Assembly: GCA_965223505.1 (NCBI GenBank)
Contig: CBDCWP010000026.1
Coordinates: forward strand, 64,001-128,000
Source: Planctomycetota bacterium
GTDB lineage: Bacteria; Planctomycetota; PLA2; JAEUHO01
Direction of reading: 5' to 3'
DNA length: 64,000 nt
Of the stretch, positions 30,805 to 58,320 are shown in pieces. The notes below the pieces were generated by a model. The model was not told where the DNA came from, searched no databases, and saw only the letters and a program-made list of their open reading frames with translations. The stretch's first letter is position 1; every line of letters begins with the position of its first letter. A program made the position numbers and the translations under genes.

Positions 30805-30877
30805 CTAGGGCGACCCTCGGGGTCGCCCAACCAGGCGCGTGCATCCTCCGTCGGGCAGCCACGAGGGCTGCCCCTAC
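30805..30877. repeat. REP inverted pair
   Basis: CTAGGGCGACCCTCGGGGTCGCCC and inverted GGGCAGCCACGAGGGCTGCCCCTAC. Confidence 0.8.
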
Positions 30878-32205
30878 AGGGTCTCGGCGCCCCGTCCGGT
30901 CTTGCGCCCCAACCCAATGCCCTCGTACTCGAACCCGGCCTCGCGGGCCTTGTCGGCATCCAGCACGTTGCGGCCGTCGAAGACGACCTTCTGCTTCATG
31001 ACGCCGCTGAGGCGTTCGAAGTCGGCGGCGCGGAATTCGAGCCACTCGGTCGCCAGGATGAGCGCGTCGGCGTCCTTGGCGGCGGCATAGGGGTCGGTCG
31101 AGTACTCCATGCGCTCACCGAACGCCTTGCGGAAGTTGTCAAGTGCTTCCGGGTCGGTCCCGACGACGGTGGCGCCTCTGGAGGCGAGCATGTCGGCGAT
31201 GACGAGCGCCGGTGCTTCGCGGATGTCGTCGGTCTGGGGCTTGAAGGCCAGGCCCCAGAGGGCGAAGCGCTTGCCGGAGAGATCCTCGCCGAAGCGTTCG
31301 ATGACGCGGCGTGCGATGAGCTCCTTCTGGGTGTCGTTGACGGCTTCGACGGCGGTGACGATGGTCATGTCGACGCCGGCGGCCTTGGCGATGTGCATGA
31401 GGCCCTGGGTGTCCTTGGGGAAGCAGGAGCCGCCGTAGCCGACGCCGGCGTAGAGGAACGGCTTTCCGATGCGGCTGTCGGTGCCGATGCCCGAGGCGAT
31501 GTCCTTGACGTTGGCGCCGACGGTGTCGCAGAGCCGGGCGATCTCGTTCATGAAGGAGATGCGGGTGGCGAGCATGGCGTTGGCGGCGTACTTGGTGACC
31601 TCGGCGGAGACGTTGGACATGCGCAGGATGGGCTTGCCGGAGACGACGTAGGGCGCGTAGAGGGTGCGCATGGTCTCGAAGGCTTCGTCGGAGTCGGTGC
31701 CGATGACGACGCGGTCGGGCTTGAGGAAGTCGTCGACGGAGCGGCCTTCGGCGAGGAACTCGGGGTTGGAGACGACGTGGACGGTGTGGTCGGTGTAGGT
31801 GGCACAGATCTCCTTCATGCGGGCGGCGGTGCCGACGGGCACGGTGCTCTTCATGACCAGGACGAGGGGGCCGGTGGCGGGTTCGACGGACTGCCTCACG
31901 GCGGCGTCGACGTAGGAGAGGTCGGGGGCGCCGTCGGGGCCTTCGGGGGTGCCGACGGCGATGAAGACGACGTCGCAGCCGGGGATGGCGTCGGCGTGGG
32001 AGGTGGTGAAGGAGATGCGGCCTTCGCGTAGGACGCGGTCGAGGATGCGACCGAGGCCGGGCTCGTAGATGGGGACCTCGCCGCCTCGGAGGGCGTCGAT
32101 CTTGGCGGGGTCGGTGTCGACGCAGACGACGTCGTGGCCTGTGTCGGCGAAGCAGACGCCGGCGACGAGGCCGACGTACCCGGTGCCGATGACGGCGATC
32201 TTCAT
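30874..32205 (-). CDS. ugd: UDP-glucose 6-dehydrogenase
   Basis: GTGYVG, KSTVPVG, SNPEFL.EG, GYGGSCFPKD, AFKPQTDD.RE. Confidence 0.95.
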   Translation of the reverse strand: MKIAVIGTGYVGLVAGVCFADTGHDVVCVDTDPAKIDALRGGEVPIYEPGLGRILDRVLREGRISFTTSHADAIPGCDVVFIAVGTPEGPDGAPDLSYVDAAVRQSVEPATGPLVLVMKSTVPVGTAARMKEICATYTDHTVHVVSNPEFLAEGRSVDDFLKPDRVVIGTDSDEAFETMRTLYAPYVVSGKPILRMSNVSAEVTKYAANAMLATRISFMNEIARLCDTVGANVKDIASGIGTDSRIGKPFLYAGVGYGGSCFPKDTQGLMHIAKAAGVDMTIVTAVEAVNDTQKELIARRVIERFGEDLSGKRFALWGLAFKPQTDDIREAPALVIADMLASRGATVVGTDPEALDNFRKAFGERMEYSTDPYAAAKDADALILATEWLEFRAADFERLSGVMKQKVVFDGRNVLDADKAREAGFEYEGIGLGRKTGRGAETL

Positions 32206-32338: not shown

Positions 32339-32417
32339 GGGGGTGTAGCTCAGTTCGGTTTAGAGCGCCGGCCTGTCAAGCCGGAGGTCGCGGGTTCGAG
32401 TCCCGTCACTCCCGCCA
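32339..32417 (+). tRNA. tRNA-Asp(GTC), integration site
   Basis: GGGGGTG/CACTCCC acceptor, CCGGC-CTGTCAA-GCCGG anticodon arm, GGTTCGAGTCC, CCA. Confidence 0.96.
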
Positions 32418-32566
32418 TTCTCCCTGCGCGTCCCTGCCCTAACTCGCGCGACGTTGCACGCTTGGGGCCGCTCCCCTACCCGGGCGCCCGACCCCTTACA
32501 TCTCGCAGCAATGTGCGAGGACGTGCGAGGTCGTGGCAGAAGAACAGCAAAGAAGTGGTCATAGTC
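32366..32566 (+). repeat. attL-like junction: 52-bp tRNA core plus downstream arm
   Basis: Core 32366-32417 identical to 53344-53395 and 58120-58171; 40-bp arm motif at 32527-32566. Confidence 0.88.
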
Positions 32567-32652
32567 GCTTGGCGGCGCTTGCTTCGCGTGGCGCCGATGC
32601 CAGTGGCGCGAGGTTCGCGGGACTGCCCGCCTCTGTCGGTAGCGTGAATACG

Positions 32653-34050
32653 ATGCGGGGTTCCCCTGGAGCATCCGTGACACAGGCCGGACACGAAGCC
32701 GAGAGGCTGCTGAACGAGCTACTGGGCTCGTCGTTGTGCTTGGACTTCGTCCTGTGGTCGCCCCAGTTCGACGATCGCGGAACGACCAAGGAGGTGTGCG
32801 ACCACGTTCTGGAGCAGTCCGGTCAAGCGATTCCGATCCAGCTGAAGACGCAAGATCCCGCAGCAGAGCGCGACGGTGCCCGCGAACGGAAGTGGCTTCG
32901 GAAGCATGGCGGGAAGGCCGTCCGGCAGCTCTCCGGCTCGATCTCGACGCTCGCTCGCCGTGACATCGACGTTTCGCACTTGCGTCGCGGCAGCTTCACG
33001 ATCAAGGCGGCGTCACTGGAAGTGATCCACGCCGTAGCCCTCGTGGACTCCCAGCAGGTCGCGGCCCTTGGGCTTCCCACGACTACGTCGCAAGGGGTCC
33101 CCGCTCACACTCTCACCGTCGCCGACTTCGTCTGGCTCGCGAACGAGCTGATGACGGTCCCGGACATGTTCATGTACCTGGACCGCCGGAGCGAGACTCT
33201 GGGTCGCCTCGAGCTGCCCGTGGGTGCGGAGAAGGCCCTGTACGCCTGGTATATCACCCACAAGAACTCCTTCGCCGAGCTCCAGGATCTCCCGTCCGCG
33301 GAATCCGCGGCCGTGGACCTCTACGTCGGCGACAACCAAGCGTTCTACGAGATGAAGCGCCAGGACGACCGGTTGGCGAAGCACTACCAGGACCTCATTG
33401 ACGGCACGCACAACGTCAACCCGGAGCTAAATACGGAGATGCCCGCGGAACTGGCAGCGGGCTGGACCTGGGAGCAGGCAGAGCGCGACTACATCAGGAT
33501 CGCCTACGAGTTGAATGCCGTTCCACGTGCGTTTCGGCGCGAGACGATGCGCAAGTTCCTTCACAAGTGCGAACTGGCTGAGGGGTCGTGGCGCCCGAGG
33601 TTCTACAGCGAGTACTTCTCGCCTCGAGAGACCGTATTTGTCTTTGCATCGTTCGACGGAGAGCCACAGAAGGCTTGGACGTGGCTCAACGGTCTTGCGC
33701 GGGGCGCCTGGGCCGCGATCGCTGAAAGGGGCTACCCGGTTGCCCGCGTCGTCGTTGCGATGGTGCCGAGCCGCGCCGGCGGAGACGGTGCGTTCCGTTA
33801 CCTGCACCTGGAACCTGAAGGCGAACCGGGTCCCAGGGATCGCGAAGCAGCAGCCCACCTGTTCGGCGCGACCTTCTCGCAGGAGGTGAACGAATTTCCG
33901 CACTTGCAGGCCCGGCCGGGTGAACTCCGTACGTTCGGGCCCGTGCCCGGCGAAGAGGTGAGGGCCGCTGCCCAGCAAATGAAGATCGGACGCAACGCAC
34001 CATGTCCATGCGGAAGCGGACGGAAGTACAAGAAGTGCCACGGGGCGTAA
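32653..34050 (+). CDS. SEC-C motif protein with putative N-terminal NERD/PD-(D/E)XK-like domain
   Basis: C-terminal GRNAPCPCGSGRKYKKCH; N-terminal EVCD...IQLK. Confidence 0.7.
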   Translation: MRGSPGASVTQAGHEAERLLNELLGSSLCLDFVLWSPQFDDRGTTKEVCDHVLEQSGQAIPIQLKTQDPAAERDGARERKWLRKHGGKAVRQLSGSISTLARRDIDVSHLRRGSFTIKAASLEVIHAVALVDSQQVAALGLPTTTSQGVPAHTLTVADFVWLANELMTVPDMFMYLDRRSETLGRLELPVGAEKALYAWYITHKNSFAELQDLPSAESAAVDLYVGDNQAFYEMKRQDDRLAKHYQDLIDGTHNVNPELNTEMPAELAAGWTWEQAERDYIRIAYELNAVPRAFRRETMRKFLHKCELAEGSWRPRFYSEYFSPRETVFVFASFDGEPQKAWTWLNGLARGAWAAIAERGYPVARVVVAMVPSRAGGDGAFRYLHLEPEGEPGPRDREAAAHLFGATFSQEVNEFPHLQARPGELRTFGPVPGEEVRAAAQQMKIGRNAPCPCGSGRKYKKCHGA

Positions 34051-35373: not shown

Positions 35374-35841
35374 CTACTTCTTGCCGTTGGAGCCTTCGTC
35401 GGTGTCCGCCTTCTCGGCTTGGGCGTCGGTGAGCACGACTTCGGCCTTCCTCAGATTCATGATGGGCAAGAGTAGCGGCGGCTGACCAGCACGGACGGTG
35501 AGGCTCCAGACAATTTCCCTCAGGTAAGGCCAGAGAAACGCAGGTGCGTTGGTGCGTGCGAACTCCTCGGGGGGCATTGAAGGCTCGCCGGACCAGTTGA
35601 ACAGCGCCCTCATCACAATGGTAGCGTCGATCGCTGCCGTTTCTCCGTCCGCAGACTCAGACCGCAGCCCCGCAGTCACGACAATACTGCGGGCCTCTTT
35701 GTCGACGACGCTCCTGATGGCGTAGTCCCACTCGGGAGCACTGAGCTCGCTCTCGGCGCTCTCTTCGACACGGAAAGATGCAGACCGGAGCTTGATCTCC
35801 TTGGCTCGATAGCCCGACGGAGAACTCTTCGTGCGCGTCAT
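35374..35841 (-). CDS. SecB-like chaperone
   Basis: NAPAFLWPYLREIVWSLTVRAGQPPLLLPIMNL SecB signature. Confidence 0.88.
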   Translation of the reverse strand: MTRTKSSPSGYRAKEIKLRSASFRVEESAESELSAPEWDYAIRSVVDKEARSIVVTAGLRSESADGETAAIDATIVMRALFNWSGEPSMPPEEFARTNAPAFLWPYLREIVWSLTVRAGQPPLLLPIMNLRKAEVVLTDAQAEKADTDEGSNGKK

Positions 35842-36272
35842 CAGGCGGCCAAACTGAAGCCCTGCATATCTTCGTCACTCAAATCGTCGTCAGTGGATCG
35901 GGGGCTCCACGCATTGCAGGACCAGAACCACTCGGTGTCGTGGACCACGATCGGATCACCGTGCGCATGATCGAGAAAGAACTCTCGAATTAGGACTTGC
36001 TCATGTTGGTCGGGATAGTGACGCTTCGTCGCCGAACGGTAGTGCGGAATGACGGACACGTCACAAAGCCTAGACGACTCGACGTCGGCGTAAACCTCAA
36101 GCATGAAGCGAACGAACTCCTCGCCGACGCCATCAGGCAGGCCGAACACGTCGAGCACTGGTCCTCCCTCATCGACAGGGAGGCTGTGGTCGAGTTGCGT
36201 GACCACTTGGGGCCACCGACTTCGCAGCACCCGCGTGTAGTGGTTCAGGATTTCGTCGTCGCTGTTCGCCAA
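35841..36272 (-). CDS. Putative antitoxin (degenerate MNT-like fold) with aromatic/acidic tail ending in LAA
   Basis: Between HEPN and SecB genes with tight coupling; ends DEDMQGFSLAA. Confidence 0.55.
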   Translation of the reverse strand: MANSDDEILNHYTRVLRSRWPQVVTQLDHSLPVDEGGPVLDVFGLPDGVGEEFVRFMLEVYADVESSRLCDVSVIPHYRSATKRHYPDQHEQVLIREFFLDHAHGDPIVVHDTEWFWSCNAWSPRSTDDDLSDEDMQGFSLAA

Positions 36273-36274
36273 GG

Positions 36275-36703
36275 CTATGTACTCACGTTCATGCTACCGA
36301 GATACTCGGGGATTCGCTCCCAAAGGGGAGCCAATTCGCCGGCTTCCACATCGTCCGGCTTGTAGTCCGACTTGATCCTCAAATCCCTGAGGCTCCTCGC
36401 GAAGGGCCCAGGCGGAGTGCCACCGAGGAGCGACCCGGCGAGTGGTGCGCAACCGCAGACAACGTCATGCGGCCATTGGCCACTTGCGTCCCCAGCACCC
36501 TGTTTGAAATCGCCAGGGACGCTTCCTCTGCTGGTCATGGCACCGACTATCGCCTGGTAGATGGCGTAGTAGGCTCGGCTGGCAGCACCGTTCATTTGAC
36601 GCGCCCTGTGTAGGGCCCTAGCTTCGCGCCATGTTGCCGCAGCCTTGCGCTTCACCGGTCCACCATCTCCCCACACGGTCGGCCCCCCGCGGGACCGATC
36701 CAC
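36275..36703 (-). CDS. HEPN domain protein (UPF0332-like), putative toxin; start uncertain
   Basis: AASRAYYAIYQA...H..V...LRDLRIKSDY. Confidence 0.8.
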   Translation of the reverse strand: MDRSRGGPTVWGDGGPVKRKAAATWREARALHRARQMNGAASRAYYAIYQAIVGAMTSRGSVPGDFKQGAGDASGQWPHDVVCGCAPLAGSLLGGTPPGPFARSLRDLRIKSDYKPDDVEAGELAPLWERIPEYLGSMNVST

Positions 36704-36860
36704 AATGCTACACGGCCGTCAGGTCTTGAGACAAGCGGTTGACACCGAGCGCTCTCGCCCACGCTCCGTGGGCCCGTGAGGGCGATCTTCATCTCGGTGC
36801 GGCTCGCGAGGCGACGAAACCTGAGCAGGCAGCGTCCCGTTCCAGGACACCTAGCCTGAA

Positions 36861-37027
36861 CTCCGCCTCGGCCGTACGCAGGTCCAACAGCGCTACGTCT
36901 GTGTACGTCTTCATCGTCAATCCGCGAGTGCCACGCCAGCGCGTGTGCGGTTCGCGGATGCTCGCCGGGGGAGGACAGCCGCGTGATGTACGTCACACGG
37001 AAGGAAGTCCAGCACGCAACCGTCATC
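36861..37027 (-). pseudogene. Frameshifted relic of a tyrosine integrase C-terminus
   Basis: DDGCVLDF/SFRVTYITRLSSPGEHPRTAHALAWHSR/LTMKTYTDVALLDL matches the C-terminus of the 38220-39452 integrase. Confidence 0.8.
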
Positions 37028-37051: not shown

Positions 37052-37447
37052 TCACTTGGCCTTGCTGATACTCCCGTCACGTATGCGCATGCACCATCGA
37101 CCCTCTCCGTCCGACACGGATCTCGACCACTTTCGGATCTTGTCCCAGTACCGCAGCAAGGTGAGAGCCTGCTGGCGAGCACGGAAGTTGGCGAACCCCT
37201 TCCCCAAGAAGAGAATTGGGCGAGAGCAGTCCGCCCATGCTCTCCTCTCGCGCTTCCCACGATCAAGTGTGACCACTACCCAGCCCGTTCTCGAATTGAG
37301 CTTGAGGATCCACTCAGCGTCAGGCGTCGGGGGATCAAAACTCTCCGTAAGGTGCTCGTACTCTTCTAACTCACCCTCAAGTTGGGCCAGCCTCGCGAGG
37401 AACTCGACAATGGGTCGCGGGACGCAGTTGTCGAAGAAGAACTTCAC
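37052..37447 (-). CDS. PIN-like domain toxin (VapC45/DUF5615-like)
   Basis: KFFFDNC, D.EWI, WVVVTLD; GTG start overlapping upstream stop. Confidence 0.8.
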   Translation of the reverse strand: MKFFFDNCVPRPIVEFLARLAQLEGELEEYEHLTESFDPPTPDAEWILKLNSRTGWVVVTLDRGKRERRAWADCSRPILFLGKGFANFRARQQALTLLRYWDKIRKWSRSVSDGEGRWCMRIRDGSISKAK

Positions 37448-38130
37448 GCAGCCGATCGATCGTCCAGGAACTGCTCGAATCGAACAGCGGCGCGGACCTC
37501 CGCGCCGGATGCACCGTACCAAGATGCCGTCGCCTCCACACCAGCCCCAGAGAGTGCGTGTGCCGCAAGAACCTGAGTTTCGACTCCCGCGATCGAAGTA
37601 ACGGGACGTCCAAACCGGTACTCAGGAGAGACCATCACAAGATCACGGACGTCGTGTAGCCCCCTACCGGGGTTCCACTTCGCCACCAGCCCGTCATCGC
37701 CAAACGTCACATCTTGAAGGTAGGGGTCCAGAATCGCGTGCCAGGCTTGCTGATTCTTGAGTAGCTCAACGAGGAGCGGCTCCTCCTCTTCCTGCGTGAT
37801 CTCGAGGAAGATGGTCCGGCCGAGTGTCCGAATGCGTTGACTCGCAAACGGATAGTCCAACGCCCAGGTCGTCCGGGCGCGATGAAGTGCCCGCCGAATG
37901 GCCTGAAGACTGACGCCCCGACTCCGAAGAATGTGAACCAATCTAAGTTGCTGAAGATCCAGAAACCCGAGAACAAGATCATCGTCGTAGCGGGGGCGCC
38001 ACAGGGGGCCGTAGCAGCGTCCCTTGGTCTGGTATCCATGCGTCCAATCGCGGACTCGGCGACGCGGAACACCGGTTAAGCGGCTCGCCGCCGGGACGTC
38101 GTACAGGCCATGACCGAGGACGGCGCTCAT
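37444..38130 (-). CDS. DUF433-containing HTH antitoxin (VapB45-like)
   Basis: GLY.VPAASRL HTH, FLDL, P..RFGRPV...GV.T, EVRAAVRFE. Confidence 0.82.
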   Translation of the reverse strand: MSAVLGHGLYDVPAASRLTGVPRRRVRDWTHGYQTKGRCYGPLWRPRYDDDLVLGFLDLQQLRLVHILRSRGVSLQAIRRALHRARTTWALDYPFASQRIRTLGRTIFLEITQEEEEPLLVELLKNQQAWHAILDPYLQDVTFGDDGLVAKWNPGRGLHDVRDLVMVSPEYRFGRPVTSIAGVETQVLAAHALSGAGVEATASWYGASGAEVRAAVRFEQFLDDRSAA

Positions 38131-38219
38131 ACAACAACCACCTCTTTCTCCTTGCTCATATCGTACGTCGGTGCATCGCGCTTGTGTCCAAAGCGCGGGT
38201 GAAGGCAATTGTAAGACGC

Positions 38220-39452
38220 TCAATCGACATGAGCGGAGAGGGTCGGGCCGCAAGTCAGGCGTTTCATACCCGAGGACGCCGATGCGGCGCCTGCCTCGAC
38301 GGCGGAATGGAGGTCTAGAAGCCGCACGTCGGTGTAGGTCCTCATAGTCAACTCAAGCCGCGAATGACGAGCCAGCGCCTGCGCTGTCCTGGGATGAACG
38401 CCAGCAGCCGATAGGCGGCTGATCATCGTGACACGCAGGCTGTGGAAATCGACGATGCGCCCCTGGTCGTCCTCGCCGTCGAGCCTGGCGTGCTTGAGAT
38501 CGGCGTTGACGGTGCCGTGGGTCGGGAACAGGCGGCCCGGGAACAGGGCGTCGTGCGGCGCGGTCCCGAGCCCGGCTCCATCAACGCGAGCGCGATGCTC
38601 TGCCAGCCCGTCGGCCACGTCGCTGCGAAGGGGCAGTTCCGTCTGCTTCTTGGACTTCGTGATCGAGGCCCGCACGGTCAGCGTGCGCCGCTCCTCGTCC
38701 ACGTCGGCCCAGGTCAGGCCCCGCAGCTCGCCCTTGCGAAGCCCGGTGCCAAGCGCGAATAGATACAGGTACGCCCGCGTCTCCCCCAGCCGTCGCAGCT
38801 TCGCTTCCTGCGGGGGCGTCACGCCAGTCCGTGTGCGCTTGACGCGTGCCCGTTCCAAAGGACGCCGTCGGGCGGCGTCGAGCAGCCGCTCGACCTCCTC
38901 GTCGGTCAGGGCGCGGCGCACACGACGTCGATCCGTTTCCTCGTTGCGGGGCGAGAGGCCCTCAAATGGGTTGTGCGACCAGCGGCGTGTACGAACGAGC
39001 CAGTTGCCGAACTGCCGCAAGGATGCGAGTCGCTTGTTCACGGTTCGCGCCGAGAGCCGTTCCGCGAGCTCGGCCAGCCAATGCTGCGCCTCCACCAGGT
39101 CGATCTGAGGCAGCGTGCGCGCCTTGGTCATCTCGAGGTACGTGCGGAGCGAATGAACGCGATCGCGATGGTGCTCCTTGCTCACACCGCGGCTCTTGAG
39201 GAACGCACAGAACTCGTCGATGTGCTCCTTCAGCGGTCGCTCGGCGTTTTCCTCGAACGGGTTCGCCAGCCCCACCGCCTTGCGTTCCTCGCGCTCGATC
39301 ATTTGCAACGCCCGCATTTCGGCCACACGCTTGTCGCGGGTACCGAGCGACTTGCGGATGAGCTTGCGGTTGACGTTGGCCTGGACCCAGTAGACGCGAC
39401 CGGTCTGCATCTCGCCCTGGCGGTTCTTGAACTTGGGGCGGTAGATCCTCAT
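38220..39452 (-). CDS. Tyrosine recombinase/integrase
   Basis: TGLRKGEL (R), KSKK (K), DFHSLR (HxxR), ARHS (H), YT (Y). Confidence 0.95.
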   Translation of the reverse strand: MRIYRPKFKNRQGEMQTGRVYWVQANVNRKLIRKSLGTRDKRVAEMRALQMIEREERKAVGLANPFEENAERPLKEHIDEFCAFLKSRGVSKEHHRDRVHSLRTYLEMTKARTLPQIDLVEAQHWLAELAERLSARTVNKRLASLRQFGNWLVRTRRWSHNPFEGLSPRNEETDRRRVRRALTDEEVERLLDAARRRPLERARVKRTRTGVTPPQEAKLRRLGETRAYLYLFALGTGLRKGELRGLTWADVDEERRTLTVRASITKSKKQTELPLRSDVADGLAEHRARVDGAGLGTAPHDALFPGRLFPTHGTVNADLKHARLDGEDDQGRIVDFHSLRVTMISRLSAAGVHPRTAQALARHSRLELTMRTYTDVRLLDLHSAVEAGAASASSGMKRLTCGPTLSAHVD

Positions 39453-39967
39453 TTGCCCGACTCCCGGACGGTCCCGAGGGGCCAGCCGTCGGGTCCGGGG
39501 GAACGGGACAGGCGTACGTGGCCGCACTCACACTGGAAGGGACCGAGGTCGCCCTCCGCGTCCCAGACCTCGACGTCGTTGAGCGTCGCGCGATGAAGCG
39601 CCATGCCCGAGAGGTCCTTGCCGGTGTAGAGCGCGGTGGCGCCGGCGCAGGCCCTGCACATGCGCCGCTCGTTGTCGCCGTAGTACACGGCGTGGTCGAT
39701 GAGAACGGCTCTCGGCTCGGTCACCTCGTCCGTAGCGACATCGCGCGCCGCCATCAGCAGCGCGTTGGCGGCCACACAGGCGTTGGAGAGGCCGTCGAGC
39801 TGATGCCGGTACGCCGAAGCAATGCCAAGTGCCTGCAGCGGCGCTGCGTTACTCAGAGCATCCAGAGCCTGCGCCAGTTCGTCTGCAAGCGTCTCAGCCT
39901 TGTCCCGGCCGTCGTCGAGCATCTCCGCCGCGGCGGCAAGCAGAGAGGCCCTGGGCGCGGCGCTCAC
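39449..39967 (-). CDS. Hypothetical protein with Cys pairs (CRAC, CECG), possible Zn-binding
   Basis: Overlaps neighbours by 4 bp in the same operon. Confidence 0.6.
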   Translation of the reverse strand: MSAAPRASLLAAAAEMLDDGRDKAETLADELAQALDALSNAAPLQALGIASAYRHQLDGLSNACVAANALLMAARDVATDEVTEPRAVLIDHAVYYGDNERRMCRACAGATALYTGKDLSGMALHRATLNDVEVWDAEGDLGPFQCECGHVRLSRSPGPDGWPLGTVRESGK

Positions 39968-40881: not shown

Positions 40882-43152
40882 TCACCGCTCGCCTTCCGTG
40901 GACGGATCGCAGCCGCCTCCGAGCGGCTTGGGTAGGTACATGCGCAGCCCGTACCCGCCGGCCCGTCTCGCGCCCGGGTACTCGCCCTGCGCGACGTGTT
41001 CGACGCCTGGCAACTTCTCCAAAACGGCTTCGACGAGATCACGTCCAGGCGGCCGTCCCTGCCTGCCGTCGGAATCCGCCCAGACAGACTGGACCTCGGG
41101 TGTCAGCTTCTTCGGTGTCACGACTCGCGGCTTCCCCGCACGAGCGAGCCGATGTATGGCGCCAACGAGGGCCTCATTGATAGCGGCCTGGACATCGCCG
41201 TGCTCGTGGCGTGGCGTTGCGTTGGATCCGGCCTTGGAAGGAACGAGATCCGCTTCGGCGGCGCGGTACACCATGCGCCCTCGGTCGTTGTCCCAACCGA
41301 GCCGCAGCCACCAGCTGCGACTGGCCACTCCAGGTGGCTCGGGTGGTCGACACCCCTGCGCCAGTGCCTCCGCGCGCTGCGCGAGCCACCGAAGATGCCC
41401 AGGGTCTCGCGCCTCAACTTCGGCCTTCATGACCGTCGATTGCTCATCGACAACCCGAATCCCAAGGTTGGCGCTGGACGCGGCGCGGATCGCCGTGGAG
41501 CCGAGCATGTGGACATGCGACGACGAACCCTCGCCGGCCTTGCGGTCGTGGTGGCAGCACCAGACTGTCGCGGGAATCGCGAGTAGGGCGTTCACCATTG
41601 CGACAGCGTCGCCGGCCTCACTGATGCTCTGCCCCGAGCCCATGGCGGAGAAGGCCGTGTAGGTGTCGATCAAGACCAGATCAACACCTGACTTCTCGAC
41701 GACTCGTGCGACGCCATCGCGCAGTGCCTCAGGAGAAACGAGGAGACTCTTGAACTCGCGAGACGCGATGAGCAACCGGCCCGATCCGCGCAACTCGTAG
41801 TCCGGGTCGTAGAGATCGAAGAAGCTGTGTGCCATCGCCTCCGGCATCTCTGTGAGCACGAGCACGCGCTTCGGTGGCCGTTGACCGAGTTCAATGACGC
41901 CGGCGATCGGGTCGTTGCAACGAAGTGCCTCGCAGAGGCAGTAGAAGGCGAAGTTCGACTTCGAGGACTTGGGCGGGGCATGAACGAAGTTGAGCGCACC
42001 CGCAAGCACGGCCGGCCTCAACACGAATACCTGCTGCGGCGCAGGATTCTCCTTCGTGAAGATGGTCGCGAAGCCGCCGGAGGTGATGAGTTCGTCGAGT
42101 CGATCGATCTCGCTCTGAGCATCCACCATGACATCCCTCCATCGGCTTGGCATGGAGATCCAGCCGGGGATTCCTGCCGCGCGGGCGTCGCGAGCCATCC
42201 TGTTCAGAGTGCCGAGCGTGATTCGATCCTGACCAACGCTGCGCTTGAACGACGCAAGCTTGTTCTTGACGTCTTCGCGCCCGCGGTACTTGTCACGGGA
42301 CTGCTTCGACCAGTCGTCGGCCAGGTCAACAACGACCTCGCGTGCGTCGTCACCCCACGCGTCAATCACGCTCTGCAGGCCAGCAAGGACGCGAATCCAC
42401 GTTTCGTAGTCCGCTGCGACGGGAGCGCCAAGACCCGACAGAGCCCTCACCGCGTCCGAGATGGCGCGACGCGATGACGATCCGCTGCACTGTGCTGGAC
42501 TGCTTCGCGCGCCAGAAGTCTCGGACACGAGCAACACATCAAGGAGCCAGGACGGACCATTGGGGATGTCCTCGGGATATGGCAGATCGTCTTCCCACGC
42601 GTATTCGCCCTCGGCACCCTTCTCACGCACGACGCTCGGTTCGAGCATCAGATAGAACGAGTTCGCCCATCCGCACTCAACACCGGTCCCAATGCCGAGA
42701 GGCTTGCGCGACGGCGTACGTCCGCTCGGATAGCGCATGAGGAAGTGCCAGCCGCCGCTCCATGACCGCTGCGTCGGGAAGCGGCCCCGAAGCCAACCGA
42801 CCGGATCCGTAAGGAACTCCCCCGGCACTTCGGCACGTTCCCCAACCGCCACGGCAAGGTCGCGCGGCCCGTCCTTCTCGTCCTTCGTGTCGACGTCGAG
42901 GTAGAGCACGCCCGGCGGCGGAAGCCCTGCGAGATTAGCTTGCCCTCCGAAGTCTCTGTCGAGAACTGCCTCGAGCTCGTGAATGTCCGCGGTCGCGTCG
43001 TTCTTCCCTGCGGACCCCTTGGTCGGCTTCTTCGAGAAGCGCGGGACCCAGAACTGGGTCCACCCCCTAGCACTGTTCTGTGCAGCGGCTTCGACAAGTT
43101 CGTCGCGCGGTGGCATCGCACGCACGACTTCTGACCTGGCAAGTGTCGGCAC
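40882..43152 (-). CDS. Bifunctional primase-polymerase + PriCT-2-like + AAA/RepA-type helicase
   Basis: LDVD.K, SGGWH prim-pol motifs; DYETWIRV...WS..S.KY; APPKSSKS P-loop, LVLIDT, HHDRK. Confidence 0.85.
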   Translation of the reverse strand: MPTLARSEVVRAMPPRDELVEAAAQNSARGWTQFWVPRFSKKPTKGSAGKNDATADIHELEAVLDRDFGGQANLAGLPPPGVLYLDVDTKDEKDGPRDLAVAVGERAEVPGEFLTDPVGWLRGRFPTQRSWSGGWHFLMRYPSGRTPSRKPLGIGTGVECGWANSFYLMLEPSVVREKGAEGEYAWEDDLPYPEDIPNGPSWLLDVLLVSETSGARSSPAQCSGSSSRRAISDAVRALSGLGAPVAADYETWIRVLAGLQSVIDAWGDDAREVVVDLADDWSKQSRDKYRGREDVKNKLASFKRSVGQDRITLGTLNRMARDARAAGIPGWISMPSRWRDVMVDAQSEIDRLDELITSGGFATIFTKENPAPQQVFVLRPAVLAGALNFVHAPPKSSKSNFAFYCLCEALRCNDPIAGVIELGQRPPKRVLVLTEMPEAMAHSFFDLYDPDYELRGSGRLLIASREFKSLLVSPEALRDGVARVVEKSGVDLVLIDTYTAFSAMGSGQSISEAGDAVAMVNALLAIPATVWCCHHDRKAGEGSSSHVHMLGSTAIRAASSANLGIRVVDEQSTVMKAEVEARDPGHLRWLAQRAEALAQGCRPPEPPGVASRSWWLRLGWDNDRGRMVYRAAEADLVPSKAGSNATPRHEHGDVQAAINEALVGAIHRLARAGKPRVVTPKKLTPEVQSVWADSDGRQGRPPGRDLVEAVLEKLPGVEHVAQGEYPGARRAGGYGLRMYLPKPLGGGCDPSTEGER

Positions 43153-44371: not shown

Positions 44372-45706
44372 ATGCAAATGCGGATCAGTGTCCAGTATCT
44401 GCCGGCCGACAAGTTGCTCCCGGACCCGGCGAACCCGCGGGTGATCTCGGACTCCGAGATGGCGGCGCTCGTCCGCTCGATCGAAACGTGGGGCCTCGTT
44501 GACCCCATCATCGTGCGCAAGGCCGACAGAACGGTGATTGGCGGCCATCAGCGCCTGCAAGCAGCGCGACGGCTTGGCTACAACTCGGTCCCCGTTGTCG
44601 AGGTCGATCTCTCGGAGGATCAGGCGCGGGCTCTCAACGTGGCGTTGAATCGAATCGGCGGCGAGTGGGACGTGCCCAAGCTGGCCGAACTTCTTCGCGG
44701 TCTCCCCGAGGACCTCGCCACGCTGACCGGCTTCGACCAGGACGCCATCGGGCGTGTGATGCACGAAGCCGAGCAAGCGATCCGCGCCATCCAGGGCGAG
44801 CAGGATCTCGACGCCGTGCCCGAACCGCCCGACGAGGCGGTCACGCAACGGGGCGATCTGATCCTGCTGGGTGAGCACCGCCTCTTGTGTGGTGACGCCG
44901 GAAGTACCGAGGATCTGGACCGACTACTCGACGGAGCGCCGATCCACTTGGCGAATTGTGACCCTCCCTACAACGTCAAGGTCGAGCCCAGGTCGAACAA
45001 TGCCATCGCAGCCGGCCTGACGACGAAGAACGACACGCGCGCCAAGACGCACCATCAGCAACTCGACGTGGCGCGCCATCCGGGCAAGGCCAAGGCGACG
45101 CACGATCGGCTGCGCGCGAAGGACCGTCCGTTAGAGAACGACTTCGTTTCCGACGAGGAGTTCGACCAACTCCTCCATGCGTGGTTCGGCAACCTGTCGC
45201 GTGTGCTACTCCCCGGTCGTGCAGCATACATCTGGGCCGGCTACGCCAACGTCGTGAACTTTCCGCAGGCGCTCAAGGAGGCGGGGCTCTACTTCTCACA
45301 GTGGATCATCTGGGACAAACAGTGGCCGGTGCTGACGCGCAAGGACTTCATGGGCGCCCACGAGGTCTGCTACTACACCTGGAAGGAAGGCGCGGCACAT
45401 CAGTTCTTCGGCCCGCCTAACGTGCCCGACGTATGGGCGGTGAAGAAGGTCAACCCGCAGTCCATGGTTCACCTCACGGAGAAGCCCGTCGAGTTGGCGA
45501 TCCGCGCGATTGAGTACAGCAGCGTTCCCGGTGAGAACGTGCTGGATCTGTTCGGCGGATCCGGTTCGACGCTGATTGCCTGTGAGCAAACGCAGCGCAA
45601 CGGCTACCTGATGGAGCTGGATGGTCTGTATTGCGACATCATCGTCGCTCGGTACGAGCATCTCACCGGGAAGAAGGCGGAACGCGTCCGTTCCGAACCG
45701 TCGTGA
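44372..45706 (+). CDS. ParB-N domain + N6/N4 DNA methyltransferase
   Basis: NPR, IGGHQR ParB motifs; DPPY; H.TEKPVEL; VLDLFGGSGST. Confidence 0.92.
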   Translation: MQMRISVQYLPADKLLPDPANPRVISDSEMAALVRSIETWGLVDPIIVRKADRTVIGGHQRLQAARRLGYNSVPVVEVDLSEDQARALNVALNRIGGEWDVPKLAELLRGLPEDLATLTGFDQDAIGRVMHEAEQAIRAIQGEQDLDAVPEPPDEAVTQRGDLILLGEHRLLCGDAGSTEDLDRLLDGAPIHLANCDPPYNVKVEPRSNNAIAAGLTTKNDTRAKTHHQQLDVARHPGKAKATHDRLRAKDRPLENDFVSDEEFDQLLHAWFGNLSRVLLPGRAAYIWAGYANVVNFPQALKEAGLYFSQWIIWDKQWPVLTRKDFMGAHEVCYYTWKEGAAHQFFGPPNVPDVWAVKKVNPQSMVHLTEKPVELAIRAIEYSSVPGENVLDLFGGSGSTLIACEQTQRNGYLMELDGLYCDIIVARYEHLTGKKAERVRSEPS

Positions 45707-45874: not shown

Positions 45875-47236
45875 ATGAACGACGATACGAAGGCGCCCGA
45901 GAGGTTGGACGGCCCGCTTCCGAAGGGAGGCGGAGGCGACGAAGTCGCCGGAGCCGAGCGGAGGAAGCGGGCCGTGAGCGGCTACGTGCCCCGCGGCACA
46001 CGCAGCCGTCGTGCTCGAACGGTGCGAAGCGACGCATCGCGTAGCGCGGAGTTCACGGGCGAGCAGCGCCTGTTGGCGCTTGACTGTTGGTTTCGCAGCG
46101 AGCTTGCGGCCACGGAGTTCGCGCCGCTGATCGGCGTGAGCACGGCGTCGCTGTACGCGTGGCGTCGCAAGTTCGAGGAGGAGGGCCCCGCCGGTTTGCT
46201 CGGGCACAAGCGCGGCATGAAGGGCAGCGGGCTGCCCGAGCCGGCGCGCCGTGCGATCCTGATGATGAAGGACGCGCATCCGGACTGGGGCCAGGATCGG
46301 ATCCACGACATGCTGATCCGAACGGAGGGTATCTCGGTTTCAGGCGGCGCGGTTCAGCGCGTGCTGAAGGAAGCGGGCTACGAGGTGGAGGCGGTTGCGC
46401 CGGCGCGCAACCCGCCCAAGGTGAAGCGATTCGAGCGCAAGCGACCGAACGAGCTTTGGCAAACGGATCTATTCACGTTTCTCCTGAAGCGCGAGCGTCG
46501 GCGCGTGCACCTGGTTTGCTACCTGGACGACTTCTCGCGTTTCATCGTGGGCTTCGGGCTTCACGCATCGGCGTCGGGTGCGATGGTTCGGGAGACGTTC
46601 GAGCAGGCGATCGCGAACTTCGGCGCGCCCGAGGAGATTTTGACCGACAACGGCGCGCAGTATCAGACCTGGCGCGGGAAGAGCTCGTTTCGCAAGCTTT
46701 GCGAGAAGCGCGGCATCAAGCAGATCGTGGCCAGGCCGAGGCGGCCGCAGACGCTTGGCAAGATCGAGCGTTTCTGGGGCACGCTGTTTCGCGAGCTGAT
46801 CGACGGAGCGATCTTCCGCGGCATGGAGGACGCCAAGACGCGCATTGCCCACTTCATCGGCTTCTACAACTTCCAGCGCACCCACCAGGGCATTGGCGGC
46901 CTGGTTCCAGCGGACCGATTCTTCGAAGCCTCGCAGAGCGTGCGCAGCGCCCTGCAGGAGGCGGTTGCAACGAACGCCAAGGAGTTGGCGCTTCACGGTG
47001 AGCCGCGCAAGCCCTTGTACCTGGCGGGTCGAATCGGCGACGAGCCGGTGTCGCTTCACGCCGAGGGCGACAAGGTGCTGTTGACGGACAAGGACGGCGT
47101 TCGCGAAGAGGTCGACTTGCGGGCATCGGGCAAGCGCAAGGATGCGGCCAAGGAGGGGCCGGGCGAGAGCGTGCTCGACGACGTGCTCGAGGAGCTCAAG
47201 GCCCTTGACGAGGCGCCCACGAAGGAGCAGGAGTAA
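45875..47236 (+). CDS. DDE transposase (HTH + rve integrase core, IS481-like)
   Basis: WQTD, LTDNG, PQTLGKIERF. Confidence 0.9.
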   Translation: MNDDTKAPERLDGPLPKGGGGDEVAGAERRKRAVSGYVPRGTRSRRARTVRSDASRSAEFTGEQRLLALDCWFRSELAATEFAPLIGVSTASLYAWRRKFEEEGPAGLLGHKRGMKGSGLPEPARRAILMMKDAHPDWGQDRIHDMLIRTEGISVSGGAVQRVLKEAGYEVEAVAPARNPPKVKRFERKRPNELWQTDLFTFLLKRERRRVHLVCYLDDFSRFIVGFGLHASASGAMVRETFEQAIANFGAPEEILTDNGAQYQTWRGKSSFRKLCEKRGIKQIVARPRRPQTLGKIERFWGTLFRELIDGAIFRGMEDAKTRIAHFIGFYNFQRTHQGIGGLVPADRFFEASQSVRSALQEAVATNAKELALHGEPRKPLYLAGRIGDEPVSLHAEGDKVLLTDKDGVREEVDLRASGKRKDAAKEGPGESVLDDVLEELKALDEAPTKEQE

Positions 47237-47742
47237 TGCCTACGAAGAAGAAGAACGTGACGACGATCACGGCGAGCAAGACGTCGCGCAAGCACGTGGC
47301 AGTGATATTGGAAGCGCTCTCAGGCGAGATCGGCACGAGCGAGGCGGCTGAGCAGATGGGCGTGTCGCTCTCGCGCTACTACCAGCTCGAAGGCCGTGCT
47401 TTGAAGGGCATGCTGCGGGCGATGGAGCCGAAGAAGCGCGGCATCCAGAAGACGCCGCAGCGCGAGATATTGGCGCTGAAGGCCGAGAAACAGCACCTGG
47501 AGAAGGAGCTTCGGCGGCACCAGTCCCTGCTTCGTGCGGCCAATCGAAGCCTGGGGCTGGCGCGCGGCGGGCGCAAGCAGGCATCCTCGAAGAAGGGCCG
47601 CAGCGCCAAGCGCGGCCACCGCGGCAAGACGGTGCTGAAGACGCTGCGCACGGGCCTTGAAGAGAAAGGAAACGGCGATGGGACGGCGAAGCGAGATGCC
47701 GACGCTGGTGGCGCGCACGTCGGCGAGCGAGACGGCGCGTGA
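47236..47742 (+). CDS. HTH/coiled-coil accessory protein of the element
   Basis: EAAEQMGVSLSRYYQLE; identical protein at 63129-63635. Confidence 0.8.
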   Translation: MPTKKKNVTTITASKTSRKHVAVILEALSGEIGTSEAAEQMGVSLSRYYQLEGRALKGMLRAMEPKKRGIQKTPQREILALKAEKQHLEKELRRHQSLLRAANRSLGLARGGRKQASSKKGRSAKRGHRGKTVLKTLRTGLEEKGNGDGTAKRDADAGGAHVGERDGA

Positions 47743-48073
47743 GCGCGTGAAGGTGATTCTGCTCACGCTTGGCCGGCAGTGGAGCGTTGGCGATGCGTGC
47801 GAGCGTTTGGGCATCGGCCGAACGCGCTTCCAGGATCTTCGACGTAGGTTCTTGCAGGCCGGCGTTGAGGCGCTTGAAGGCGGCGCTTGTGGCCGGCCGC
47901 GCGCCGTGCTGCCTGACGACGATCATGAGCTTGAGCGCGAGGTGTCGAAGCTACGGCACCGAGTGCGCGTGGTGCGCACGCAGGTGGACATCTTCGATTG
48001 CGGGCTTGGCGAGGCGCCGCGGGTTCGGCACGCGCTGCATGTGGCGCACCAGGAAGGTTGGAGGCAGCGATGA
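47678..48073 (+). CDS. Second HTH accessory protein of the element
   Basis: DACERLGIGRTRFQDLR...GRP; AAAGGA RBS. Confidence 0.75.
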   Translation: MGRRSEMPTLVARTSASETARERVKVILLTLGRQWSVGDACERLGIGRTRFQDLRRRFLQAGVEALEGGACGRPRAVLPDDDHELEREVSKLRHRVRVVRTQVDIFDCGLGEAPRVRHALHVAHQEGWRQR

Positions 48074-49176
48074 GCGAGAAGATGTCGTACGAGGAGCAGG
48101 TGAAGTTCCGGCTTCAGGCCGTGGAGGTGATGCGGCGAAGTGGCTGGGACAAGGAAACACGCGCCTACCTGGCGCGAGTCCTTGGCGTGGCCGAGCGAAC
48201 GATCAGGCGTTGGGAGCTTCGCGTTCGCCAGGGCAAGCCGGTGTACGAGAAGCGTGGCCGCAAGGCCGATGACGTACCACGAGCGAAGCGGCAGAAGGTG
48301 CTGCATGCGATGTTCAAGCTGGGGCCGTTCTCGGGTGTGGCCGTACTTCGGGGCATGTTCAGCGACGTACCGTATCGCGTGCTTTCAGAGATGAAGAGGC
48401 GCCTGCTACGGGTGGCGCTGCGTCGATGGCGCTGGTATCGCAAGCGGCTAGAGTGGGTTCGTTCCGGGGCGGTGTGGGCGGCGGACTTCACCAGGCCCAA
48501 GGCTGGCCTCTGGCAGGGCAAGGATCGACTGTTCCTGGTTCGCGATCTCGGAAGCGGAGCGCAGCTGGCGGCCGTAGCCTGCCGGGGCGAGAAGACGAAG
48601 ACTGTGTGCGCGGCGCTGCTCGCTTTGATCACGCTGTTCGGAGCGCCGCTGATTCTGAAGAAGGACAACGCGGGCGCGTTTCGCTCGGAACAGACGGCCG
48701 CGTTGCTCGAGGAGCACGGCATCACGCCACTCACGTCGCCGCCGTACACGCCCGCCTACAACGGCGCGTGCGAGCGCAGCGGCGGGAACTTCAAGCGACG
48801 TGTACAGCACATCGCGCAGATGGAAGGACATCCCCGCATCTGGCTACCTCAAAACCTCGACGACGCCTTGCTCGTTGCGAATACGACGGCGAGGCCATGG
48901 GGTGCGACTGGGCCGACGCCGGCGGAGGCTCTTGAAGACCGCCGGCCGATCACGAGGCAAGAGAGAACGGCATTTGAGCACGATCTGAAGTTCGAGACCG
49001 ATGCCGCGCTCAAGACATTCAAGGAAAGAAACGCTAGAATGCCGACGTGCATCGAGCGCGCGTCAATCGACCGCAGCGCGACGCAGAGAACGCTCTGCAA
49101 GCACGGCTATCTACAGTTCCGGAGAGGGCGCTTATCAACACTAGTTTCCGCTTGGCGGACGCGGCCTAACGCGTAG
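48070..49176 (+). CDS. Second DDE transposase (HTH + rve core), reads into the right end
   Basis: WAADF, KDNAGAF, PAYNGACER. Confidence 0.88.
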   Translation: MSEKMSYEEQVKFRLQAVEVMRRSGWDKETRAYLARVLGVAERTIRRWELRVRQGKPVYEKRGRKADDVPRAKRQKVLHAMFKLGPFSGVAVLRGMFSDVPYRVLSEMKRRLLRVALRRWRWYRKRLEWVRSGAVWAADFTRPKAGLWQGKDRLFLVRDLGSGAQLAAVACRGEKTKTVCAALLALITLFGAPLILKKDNAGAFRSEQTAALLEEHGITPLTSPPYTPAYNGACERSGGNFKRRVQHIAQMEGHPRIWLPQNLDDALLVANTTARPWGATGPTPAEALEDRRPITRQERTAFEHDLKFETDAALKTFKERNARMPTCIERASIDRSATQRTLCKHGYLQFRRGRLSTLVSAWRTRPNA

Positions 49177-53260: not shown

Positions 53261-53543
53261 CGCACAGTCATGCCGATTTGTGGCAAAGACACCCGAGGCT
53301 GAATCTGCAACTTACGCCGTTGCAAACAGTTACGACTTGGGCTCGCCGGCCTGTCAAGCCGGAGGTCGCGGGTTCGAGTCCCGTCACTCCCGCCATTCTT
53401 GTTGCGCCCAGTTGCACTATCTCGCGCCCCGGTGCGCACTTCGGGCGATCTCGCGCCACGGCCGCCGATTCCTTACATCTCGCAACGATGTGCGAGGAAG
53501 TGCGAGGTCGTGGCAGAAGAACAGCAAAGAAGTGGTCATAGTC
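53261..53543 (+). repeat. attP-like junction: upstream arm + 52-bp tRNA-Asp core + downstream arm
   Basis: Core 53344-53395; arms 53261-53290 and 53504-53543 shared with the 58037-58320 junction. Confidence 0.88.
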
Positions 53544-58036: not shown

Positions 58037-58320
58037 CGCACAGTCATGCAGATTTGTGGCAAAGACGCTCGCGGCCGGTCTTGCAACTGACGCCGTTGCA
58101 AGCAGTTACGACTTGGCCTCGCCGGCCTGTCAAGCCGGAGGTCGCGGGTTCGAGTCCCGTCACTCCCGCCAGTCTTCTTGCACGACGTCGCCCCAACTTG
58201 CGCGACGTTGCACGCTTGCGGCGATCTCCCTAGCGGAGCGCCCGATCCCTTACTTCTCGCAGCAATGTGCAAGGACGTGCGAGGTCGTGGCAGAAGAACA
58301 GCAAAGAAGTGGTCATAGTC
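58037..58320 (+). repeat. Second attP-like junction
   Basis: Core 58120-58171; arms 58037-58066 and 58281-58320. Confidence 0.88.

Follow-up and report, generated by a model that had tools for sequence, protein, structure and literature searches.

Three tightly coupled genes on the minus strand of a 64,000-nucleotide stretch of the genome of a Planctomycetota bacterium (contig CBDCWP010000026.1, positions 64,001 to 128,000; the whole of this stretch is referred to as the window and coordinates are those of the window) probably form a tripartite toxin-antitoxin-chaperone (TAC) operon, located on a tRNA-Asp genomic island and built on a new HEPN/antitoxin pair. They encode a HEPN-domain protein (T), a 143 aa protein (A) and a SecB-like chaperone (C). 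The attributes by which a TAC operon is recognised at the sequence level are all found here, namely the gene order, a third gene of the SecB-TA type, an aromatic extension predicted with low confidence and an Ala-Ala terminus. The original prediction, made from the sequence alone, was of a HEPN toxin with a partner resembling a minimal nucleotidyltransferase (MNT), the pair having been placed under SecB control. Its core, a TAC with a HEPN toxin, is backed computationally by the coupling of the genes, the TAC-type SecB, the aromatic LAA tail, the presence of the T-A pair at a second locus and a model of the T-A complex, but the MNT-like nature of the partner is not.

Organisation of the operon

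The features of the operon are as follows.

36275..36703, minus strand: open reading frame (ORF) of T, 142 aa from the GTG at 36703, containing SRAYYAIYQA and RIKSDY
36275..36655, minus strand: T, putative toxin, HEPN-domain protein, 126 aa from the GTG at 36655
35841..36272, minus strand: A, putative antitoxin, 143 aa, TTG start
35958..36272, minus strand: N-terminal domain of A, residues 1-105, putative toxin-binding core, globular alpha/beta domain
35844..35957, minus strand: C-terminal tail of A, residues 106-143, putative chaperone-addiction element and ClpXP degron, low-confidence extension
35907-35933, minus strand: aromatic patch EWFWSCNAW in the tail of A, residues 114-122
35868-35894, minus strand: acidic run TDDDLSDED in the tail of A, residues 127-135
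35844-35852, minus strand: terminal LAA (of FSLAA) at the end of the tail of A
35374..35841, minus strand: C, SecB-like chaperone, 155 aa, ATG start

The ORF list and a check of the sequence of the window place the three ORFs head to tail in the order T-A-C. The TAG stop codon of T (36277-36275) is followed by 2 bp and then by the TTG of A, and A and C overlap by 1 bp in an ATGA, the final A of the TGA of A being the first base of the ATG of C. Hence, the junctions are those originally described, and the elements SRAYYA, RIKSDY, EWFWSCNAW, the acidic run and FSLAA, as well as the length of the middle protein, were likewise all found in the sequence. The next gene past C is oriented convergently. 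None of the three ORFs is interrupted by a frameshift or an internal stop codon, and the GC content by codon position is gene-like in both A (0.66/0.38/0.71) and C (0.58/0.50/0.75).

Translation of T probably begins at the GTG at 36655 rather than at 36703, because its homologue at the related locus described below begins at the equivalent position. For A, the TTG is the correct start as all 26 relatives align from query residues 5-14, and this also rules out the GTG codons at residues 39 and 15, which were considered as alternatives. The public protein set contains A only as a 105 aa form that begins at an internal GTG and is 38 residues shorter. When hidden Markov models of the A and T families were run against the six-frame ORFs, no paralogue of either was found in the window.

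The first gene encodes a HEPN protein

By its predicted fold and profile matches, T belongs to the HEPN proteins and is of the AF0298/UPF0332 type. The AlphaFold2 (AF2) model of T (pLDDT 82.4, pTM 0.81) most closely matches 2q00 (TM 0.70/0.73) among structures in the PDB when searched with Foldseek, followed by 2hsb, which is AF0298 (TM 0.67/0.67), and then by 4nqf, 1ufb, 1wol and sacsin (3o10). The top seven rows are all HEPN proteins, six being chains of 2q00/2jpu, 2hsb and 4nqf (TMq 0.58-0.71, probability 0.99-1.00) and the seventh 1ufb (TMq 0.59, probability 0.94). A feature search of a language-model Atlas with T returned HEPN clusters in 30 of 30 matches with a top score of 0.96, and a profile of the T family matched both AF0298 (E 0.012) and, at E 1.3e-7, 9xbd, which is deposited as a 'HEPN domain-containing protein'. 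The assignment of the first gene to HEPN is thus upheld by fold, feature and profile matches, though the score of T against the Pfam HEPN family PF05168 is 18.6-19.0 bits and the cut-off is 22. A word-index search with the 142 aa form recovered none among 149 candidates and tblastn against plasmids gave no match. The relatives found are P0029, P0030 and P0031, two of which (P0030 and P0031) were retrieved by a profile of T plus the homologue from the related locus, and P0030 carries a precomputed PF05168 assignment.

Across four sequences of the T family, which share 34-37 % identity, R27-A-Y-Y-A, H63, R93, K95, D97, Y98 and D101 are invariant. In the motif R93-I-K-S-D-Y98 a Tyr lies at +5 and there is no His at +5 to +7; the conserved D97 lies beside the position where the His is expected and the invariant H63 is upstream. 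In Anantharaman 2013 (PMC3710099), the His is reported to be typically absent from AF0298-related proteins, and the AF0298/2hsb variant, in which a conserved D replaces the H and a conserved H is found elsewhere, is put forward as a possible alternative active site. We equate the D97 plus H63 pattern of T with this variant, and ribonuclease (RNase) activity of T is therefore plausible. The same source names MNTs as the usual partners of HEPN proteins in the clade of T and records a genome-scale screen in which HEPN proteins without the motif nevertheless proved to be effective toxins.

Two HEPN chains in the PDB, 9xbd and 9xbc, include the sRAYYA motif of T together with R-x-R-x-D-Y, and the two differ by a Tyr to Phe change within the latter motif. 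This difference suggests that the tyrosine is a residue that was probed by the depositors. A literature search for 9xbd yielded no relevant paper.

A belongs to a previously undescribed family

An exhaustive phmmer search of 1.84 billion representatives with A returned 28 proteins at E<=0.001. They comprise the shortened record of A itself (P0001), a 1698 aa protein (P0002, E 1.8e-11) for which there is no matched stretch, and 26 small proteins. The first two were left out of the alignment and the family, as used here, therefore has 27 members, the query and 26 relatives that share 28-43 % identity with it over query residues ~5-110. The conserved core of ~90 residues includes the motifs RFP, LDVFxIPD and IPHxxSxTxxYP. 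M1, P46 and T82 are invariant in the 27-sequence alignment, and P21, F43 and D47 are near-invariant; D47 is the sole near-invariant acidic column and D41 is not conserved. Every family-invariant residue of both T and A is retained at this locus. Ten of the relatives were looked up by cluster, and all were singletons on contigs of 719-11,483 bp (ENA, Logan, NCBI).

No Pfam family was detected in any of the 27 members, even at E<=10. A search of the PDB with a profile of the family produced one unrelated match (E 0.28), the Atlas feature search with the N-terminal domain produced no usable match, the word-index search with A found only its own shortened record, and tblastn with A against plasmids and phages gave no match. 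The A core is a previously undescribed family.

The N-terminal part is well predicted, with block means of pLDDT of 84-98 over residues 1-100 in the AF2 model, and consists of a helix, two strands, a helix, a strand and two helices, with a loop of 10 residues joining the first two strands. There was no Foldseek match to the PDB at E<=0.001, the best being to the BolA-like 2mcq (E 0.066, TM 0.36/0.59).

The fold of nucleotidyltransferases places a GS helix between the first two strands, and the motifs by which MNTs are recognised are G[SG] followed by DxD. Neither a GS nor a DxD column is present in the 27-sequence alignment, and no member of the family (0/27) matched a nucleotidyltransferase Pfam family at E<=10. 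The chains of MntA were matched by Foldseek at E 0.74-1.8 with TMq 0.32-0.33, the best being 6m6u_F (E 0.74, TM 0.32/0.36); 6m6w_F, 6m6v_A, the minimal nucleotidyltransferase 1wot, TUT7 and URT1 are among the weak matches, and nucleotidyltransferases as a group lie at E 0.7-1.8 and TMq 0.29-0.36. With no GS or DxD column, one near-invariant acidic residue and no significant fold match, A is therefore, as judged from its sequence, not an MNT, contrary to what was originally proposed, and is probably not an enzyme.

The C-terminal tail of A

TACs are operons of a toxin, an antitoxin and a SecB-like chaperone, with the chaperone gene last (Mets preprint). According to Bordes 2016 (PMC5105189), the antitoxin becomes prone to aggregation and dependent on SecB through a C-terminal extension, the chaperone-addiction (ChAD) region, in which aromatic residues are essential. 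Aromatic residues in the antitoxin tail are also reported to be those recognised in the Mets preprint. The antitoxin terminus is a ClpXP degron, which is Val-Ala in HigA1 and Ala-Ala in CmdA (the Mets preprint being among the sources for both), and TAC antitoxins, including CmdA, terminate in LAA (Vassallo et al. 2024).

The C-terminal sequence of A is ...HDTEWFWSCNAWSPRSTDDDLSDEDMQGFSLAA, and the block means of pLDDT fall to 47-53 from residue 111. Seven aromatic, 13 acidic and two basic residues are found among the 56 residues that follow the YP motif (residues 88-143). Hence, at the sequence level, the tail has the published hallmarks of a TAC antitoxin, an aromatic extension and an Ala-Ala terminus. 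The LAA end, originally compared with the ssrA tag, is not a new twist; the report of Vassallo et al. 2024 that TAC antitoxins end in LAA makes it a hallmark of membership.

An Ala-Ala terminus is present in six of the 27 members of the A family (the query, P0004, P0006, P0013, P0019 and P0023), and a seventh, P0022, ends in AYA. At the Ala frequency of 0.089 in the family the binomial probability of six such ends is ~6e-8 if the tails are treated as independent, and Ala-Ala termini are thus in excess of chance as judged from the 27 sequences. The six tails include 4-21 aromatic residues and have a net charge of -11 to 0. About 11 of the other tails are basic, with a net charge of +6 to +12 and 0-2 aromatic residues. 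The tails are modular within the family.

The third gene encodes a TAC-type SecB

C passed the gathering cut-off of the Pfam SecB family PF02556 (29.6 bits, cut-off 26), which bears out the identification of the third gene as SecB-like, but against the NCBIfam equivalogs for housekeeping SecB it scored only 16-27 bits where the cut-offs are 103-223 (e.g. 26.7 versus 143). The best match in the defence library was to the PADLOC model PD-T4-9_C for CmdC (PDLC04072, E 3.5e-11, 41.4 bits). The best PDB sequence match was to 5mtw, the 'SecB-like chaperone Rv1957' of Mycobacterium tuberculosis (E 0.0013), followed by Haemophilus influenzae SecB (1fx3, E 0.076).

When C was compared by tblastn with 72,556 plasmids, only two matches were found, both to annotated SecB genes, whose products are 38-43 % identical to C in alignments that cover 52 % and 41 % of it; there was no match among phages. 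Each is the third gene of a triad.

1423-2791 of pBDT201-1 of Acinetobacter indicus (L002): hypothetical protein of 208 aa, hypothetical protein of 97 aa, SecB
1407-2749 of pTs417 of 'Candidatus Thiodictyon syntrophicum' (L003): hypothetical protein of 191 aa, hypothetical protein of 97 aa, SecB

These triads resemble T-A-C in that SecB is third and the middle protein has an acidic/aromatic tail ending in LAA or LAAS (...SANDDEYLLAA and ...NEEPFPLAAS, respectively), which is ssrA-like. The first two proteins in each are unrelated to their counterparts here, and they had no Pfam or PADLOC match above noise. The plasmid triads are likely to be unannotated TACs of yet another kind. Taken together, the Pfam match, the matches to the CmdC model and to Rv1957, the failure to reach the equivalog cut-offs and the plasmid triads indicate that C is, by its sequence relationships, a TAC-type SecB.

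T and A occur together elsewhere and are predicted to bind

A genome scan that started from a subset of eight A-family sequences gave 95 pattern matches, one of which encodes a relative. At this related locus (L001), in a Planctomycetota metagenome-assembled genome, a 137 aa homologue of T that shares 36 % identity and has the same invariant residues ends 9 bases before the 128 aa ORF of an A homologue (P0015, 125 aa). Adjacency of T and A is therefore conserved at the one related locus retrieved. There, the tail of the A homologue is basic and the next gene encodes a PQQ-propeller protein.

The complex of T with residues 1-106 of A was modelled using the alignments of their own families as input. 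The ipSAE values were 0.85, 0.84 and 0.87, and the best of three controls reached 0.01. The ipSAE mark is reached by 116 of 157 solved complexes and by 2 of 215 mismatched pairs, a benchmark that is approximate here as own alignments were used. At least 91 % of the contacts agree between runs, and pLDDT of the partner does not drop below 83. The predicted interface involves residues 60, 62-64 and 80-111 of T, including H63, K95, Y98 and D101, and residues 31-41, 48-65, 71-78, 81 and 84-85 of A, such that the conserved motifs of the two families would face each other. The model supports binding of A to T.

The operon lies on a probable genomic island

The triad lies downstream of a tRNA-Asp gene in a region where the GC content drops from ~0.68 to ~0.61 (33-38 kb). 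The surrounding features are listed below.

32339-32417, plus strand: tRNA-Asp (ARAGORN)
32366-32421, plus strand: left copy of a 56 bp direct repeat, which comprises the 3' end of tRNA-Asp and some sequence beyond it, probable left island border (blastn)
53344-53399, plus strand: right copy of the 56 bp repeat, probable island border (blastn, 100 % identity)
32533-34050, plus strand: SEC-C-motif protein, 505 aa, otherwise of unknown family, C-terminal SEC-C at E 3.8e-10, 1.3 kb from the SecB-like gene
36757-36792: remnant of the UDP-glucose dehydrogenase gene (30874-32205), its first 36 bases at 75 % identity, directly upstream of T
36916-37020: integrase fragment, 35 residues, matching the integrase encoded at 38220-39527 over its residues 358-392 at 57 % identity
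37052-37522 and 37444-38253, both minus strand: PIN_10-domain gene (E 1.8e-16) and MerR/HTH_66-like helix-turn-helix (HTH) ORF, the PIN_10 gene following the HTH ORF with a 79-base overlap
40882-43152, minus strand: Prim-Pol/PriCT_2/AAA_25 protein (domain search)
44372-45706, plus strand: ParB_N-N6_N4 DNA methylase fusion (domain search)

A third repeat of the tRNA-Asp region (176 bp, 88.6 % identity) is found at 58120-58294. The direct repeats of tRNA-Asp suggest that two or more elements have integrated in tandem at this gene, with the triad in the first, which is ~21 kb long. Between the 56 bp repeats lie the SEC-C-motif protein, the triad, the integrase fragment, the PIN_10 and HTH pair and a full tyrosine integrase, as well as the Prim-Pol/AAA_25 protein, the ParB-methylase and rve transposases. 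The Prim-Pol and ParB-methylase proteins are typical cargo of integrative elements, and the PIN_10/HTH pair beside the triad is probably a second toxin-antitoxin (TA) pair. The two remnants upstream of T look like the scars of an older integration. A SEC-C zinc-binding tail is the means by which SecA binds SecB, and the nearness of the SEC-C-motif protein to C may be coincidence, or this protein may be a client of the chaperone or a competitor for it.

Two pairs of ORFs of 168 and 392 aa are found on opposite strands at 47236-49176 (plus) and 61695-63635 (minus), with the same lengths and codon-position GC; the 392 aa ORF of the plus strand pair includes an rve integrase core. The two pairs probably represent a single insertion sequence present in two inverted copies.

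Comparison with known systems

The TACs that have been named are based on the HigBA, HicAB, MqsRA and CmdTA units (Bordes 2016, PMC5105189; Mets preprint; Vassallo et al. 2024), and Sala 2012 (PMC3581621) also lists unclassified 'MqsA-like' and 'HTH-like' groups, as well as some toxins whose function is unknown. A HEPN-based TAC was not found to be described in the literature covered, the supplementary tables of TAC surveys, which could include such loci, and subscription journals being outside its scope. HEPN and SecB do occur together in the papers covered, but only among the references or in sentences unrelated to each other. The expectation that HEPN would be a toxin class not listed for TACs was correct for this body of literature.

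CmdTAC (PD-T4-9, from Escherichia coli ECOR22) is among the closest known systems. It has the same T-A-C order, CmdC is the closest model match to C, and CmdA resembles A in that a small folded part at the N-terminus is followed by a long unstructured C-terminal part that ends in LAA. If the chaperone is missing, CmdA is lost by way of ClpP (Vassallo et al. 2024). However, the CmdTAC toxin is an mRNA ADP-ribosyltransferase whereas the toxin here would be a HEPN protein, the folded part of CmdA is a pair of helices whereas that of A is an alpha/beta domain of 105 residues, and only C matches a PADLOC model (PD-T4-9_C), T and A matching none.

HigBAC (Rv1955-1957 of M. tuberculosis) and the HicAB and MqsRA TACs are also tripartite and include a SecB-like chaperone, Rv1957 being the best PDB match of C. 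Their antitoxins have a ChAD with essential aromatics and a C-terminal ClpX degron, to which the tail of A would correspond, and their toxins are RNases, as T probably is. They differ in that the toxins have RelE/HigB, HicA or MqsR folds rather than the HEPN fold, and the antitoxins are DNA binders of the HTH, ribbon-helix-helix or zinc-HTH type whereas the core of A includes no recognisable DNA-binding domain.

With the HEPN-MNT systems (HepT-MntA) the locus shares a small two-gene module, a HEPN fold of the classical MNT-associated clade and, in the predicted complex, a partner lying against the helix of the conserved R...Y motif. Here, however, the HEPN gene is first, A lacks any nucleotidyltransferase motif, the RX4HXY of the toxin is replaced by R-x-K-x-D-Y plus an upstream His, and a third, SecB-like gene and a degron tail are present.

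Proposed mechanism and alternatives

In the model that we favour, T would be a metal-independent RNase (probably) that uses R93 and the upstream H63 in place of the pair in Rx4-6H. A would be a non-enzymatic antitoxin in the style of type II systems that neutralises T by direct binding, with its N-terminal domain predicted to sit over the R-x-K-x-D-Y helix and H63. By analogy with HigBAC and CmdTAC, the aromatic patch in the tail of A would be held by a tetramer of C, which would keep A soluble and shield the terminal LAA from ClpXP. Titration of C by unfolded clients or by a phage structural protein would then lead to degradation of A, release of T and arrest of the cell. The opposite assignment of roles, with A as toxin and T as antitoxin, was rejected since, in all TACs described, it is the antitoxin that has the degron tail and is coupled to the chaperone. 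Elsewhere, T and A are a two-gene module in which A has a basic tail, and the locus therefore looks like a TA pair in which the tail was swapped, a plain T-A pair having thereby gained SecB/ClpXP control.

Several observations weigh against a functional TAC. The complete triad was found once only, the contexts examined being this locus and the related one, and at the latter a search of 4 kb for a SecB-like gene found none, the best tblastn match having E 0.15 and spanning 15 residues. Of the conserved triads and LAA termini to be looked for, the T-A pair recurred at the related locus and Ala-Ala ends in the family (6/27), and SecB did not recur at the related locus. T scored below the Pfam HEPN threshold, had no Foldseek match at E<=0.001 (0.15-0.77 for the top seven) and departs from the canonical Rx4-6H motif, with a Tyr in the expected His position; and according to Anantharaman 2013 (PMC3710099) some HEPN domains without the motif may be non-catalytic. 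The pattern of its GC content by codon position (0.62/0.56/0.67) is weaker than the patterns seen in A and C, and T is missing from the public protein set, where A is present only in shortened form. A scan for sigma-70-type consensus sites and intrinsic terminators found no promoter-like and no terminator-like site around the operon, and a decayed integrase fragment adjoins it. Since solved HEPN-MNT complexes exist, the score of the T-A model could owe something to HEPN-MNT likeness, though A has no significant likeness to MNTs. Finally, we infer the toxicity of T, its neutralisation by A, the binding of A by C and the dependence on ClpXP, and likewise a role of the module in the stress response or phage defence.

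If SecB controls a real binding pair of T and A in which T is a HEPN protein without catalytic activity that binds RNA or nucleotides or is regulatory, the operon would encode a chaperone-controlled regulatory complex instead of a toxin system. The Tyr in place of the canonical His, the low Pfam score and the possibility, raised by Anantharaman 2013 (PMC3710099), that motif-less HEPN domains act non-catalytically all favour this. We nevertheless regard it as unlikely because the polar cluster of H63, R93, K95, D97, Y98 and D101 is fully conserved in the four sequences and is AF0298-like, the motif-less HEPN proteins in the screen reported in the same paper were effective toxins, and the combination of a degron-tailed partner with a TAC-type chaperone is known, in the literature covered, only from the control of toxins. 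The integrase fragment beside the operon means that the module could also be a relic decaying in an old island, with genes that can still be read but are no longer expressed or functional. The fragment at 36916-37020 and the degenerate copy of the 5' end of a neighbouring gene at 36757-36792 lie directly upstream, no promoter-like site was found, T was not called in the public protein set and no close relative of T, A or C emerged from the searches made. But the ORFs are intact, the invariant residues of T and A and the 2 bp and 1 bp junctions are preserved, and the promoter scan covers only sites of the sigma-70-type consensus; a relic is thus rather improbable.

That C is an unrelated neighbour, for example a chaperone that serves the island more generally in export or as a holdase, beside an ordinary two-gene module, would account for the T-A pair at the related locus, which has no SecB, and the SEC-C-motif protein is only 1.3 kb away. 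It is very unlikely, since the ATGA overlap couples C to A and the gene beyond C is convergent, C is closer to TAC chaperones than to housekeeping SecB and A, unlike its homologue at the related locus, has the type of tail that is recognised by TAC chaperones. The least probable of the alternatives, for which we see hardly any room, is that A is a highly degenerate MNT that modifies Y98 of T enzymatically in the type VII style, as MntA modifies a Tyr of HepT. HEPN proteins of this clade are normally paired with MNTs (Anantharaman 2013, PMC3710099), MntA (6m6u_F, E 0.74), 1wot, TUT7 and URT1 are weakly matched by Foldseek, the predicted interface sets D41 and H77 of A beside Y98-D101 of T, and the Tyr to Phe change between 9xbc and 9xbd suggests that the tyrosine of the homologous motif was probed. 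Against this stand the lack of any G[SG] or DxD, with D47 the only near-invariant acidic residue in the 27 sequences and D41 not conserved, and the lack of nucleotidyltransferase Pfam matches (0/27 at E<=10) or of a PDB sequence match. In addition, the fold matches are non-significant and the best is to a BolA-like protein, and a 10-residue loop lies between the first two strands of A, the site of the GS helix in nucleotidyltransferases.

Significance

Because T was not called and A was shortened by 38 residues in the public protein set, systems of the kind favoured here, a TAC operon built on a HEPN/antitoxin pair, are likely to be undercounted by automated annotation. If this reading is correct, HEPN RNases would join the toxins of TAC defence systems, and chaperone and ClpXP control would be brought to a toxin fold that is very abundant in prokaryotes. 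To our knowledge, HEPN proteins are neutralised either by MNT-mediated AMPylation or by dedicated partners, and the capping of the HEPN motif helix by A, a high-confidence prediction, would amount to a novel mode of silencing a HEPN domain, by a family for which there is no Pfam model and no solved relative.

With less conviction than for the TAC operon itself, we suggest that A may be the founder of a family of antitoxins that bind classical HEPN toxins directly, these toxins being otherwise paired with MNT enzymes. In this family the control tail would have been swapped repeatedly, most tails being basic and about a quarter being aromatic and acidic and ending in Ala-Ala, which would put the latter under SecB-like/ClpXP control. 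The grafting of ChADs has been shown experimentally (Bordes 2016, PMC5105189). As the core of A occurs both with and without an addiction tail, the family offers a natural test of such modular grafting, and repeated swapping of its tails would document in nature how a simple TA pair turned into a chaperone-addicted, potentially phage-sensing HEPN-TAC.

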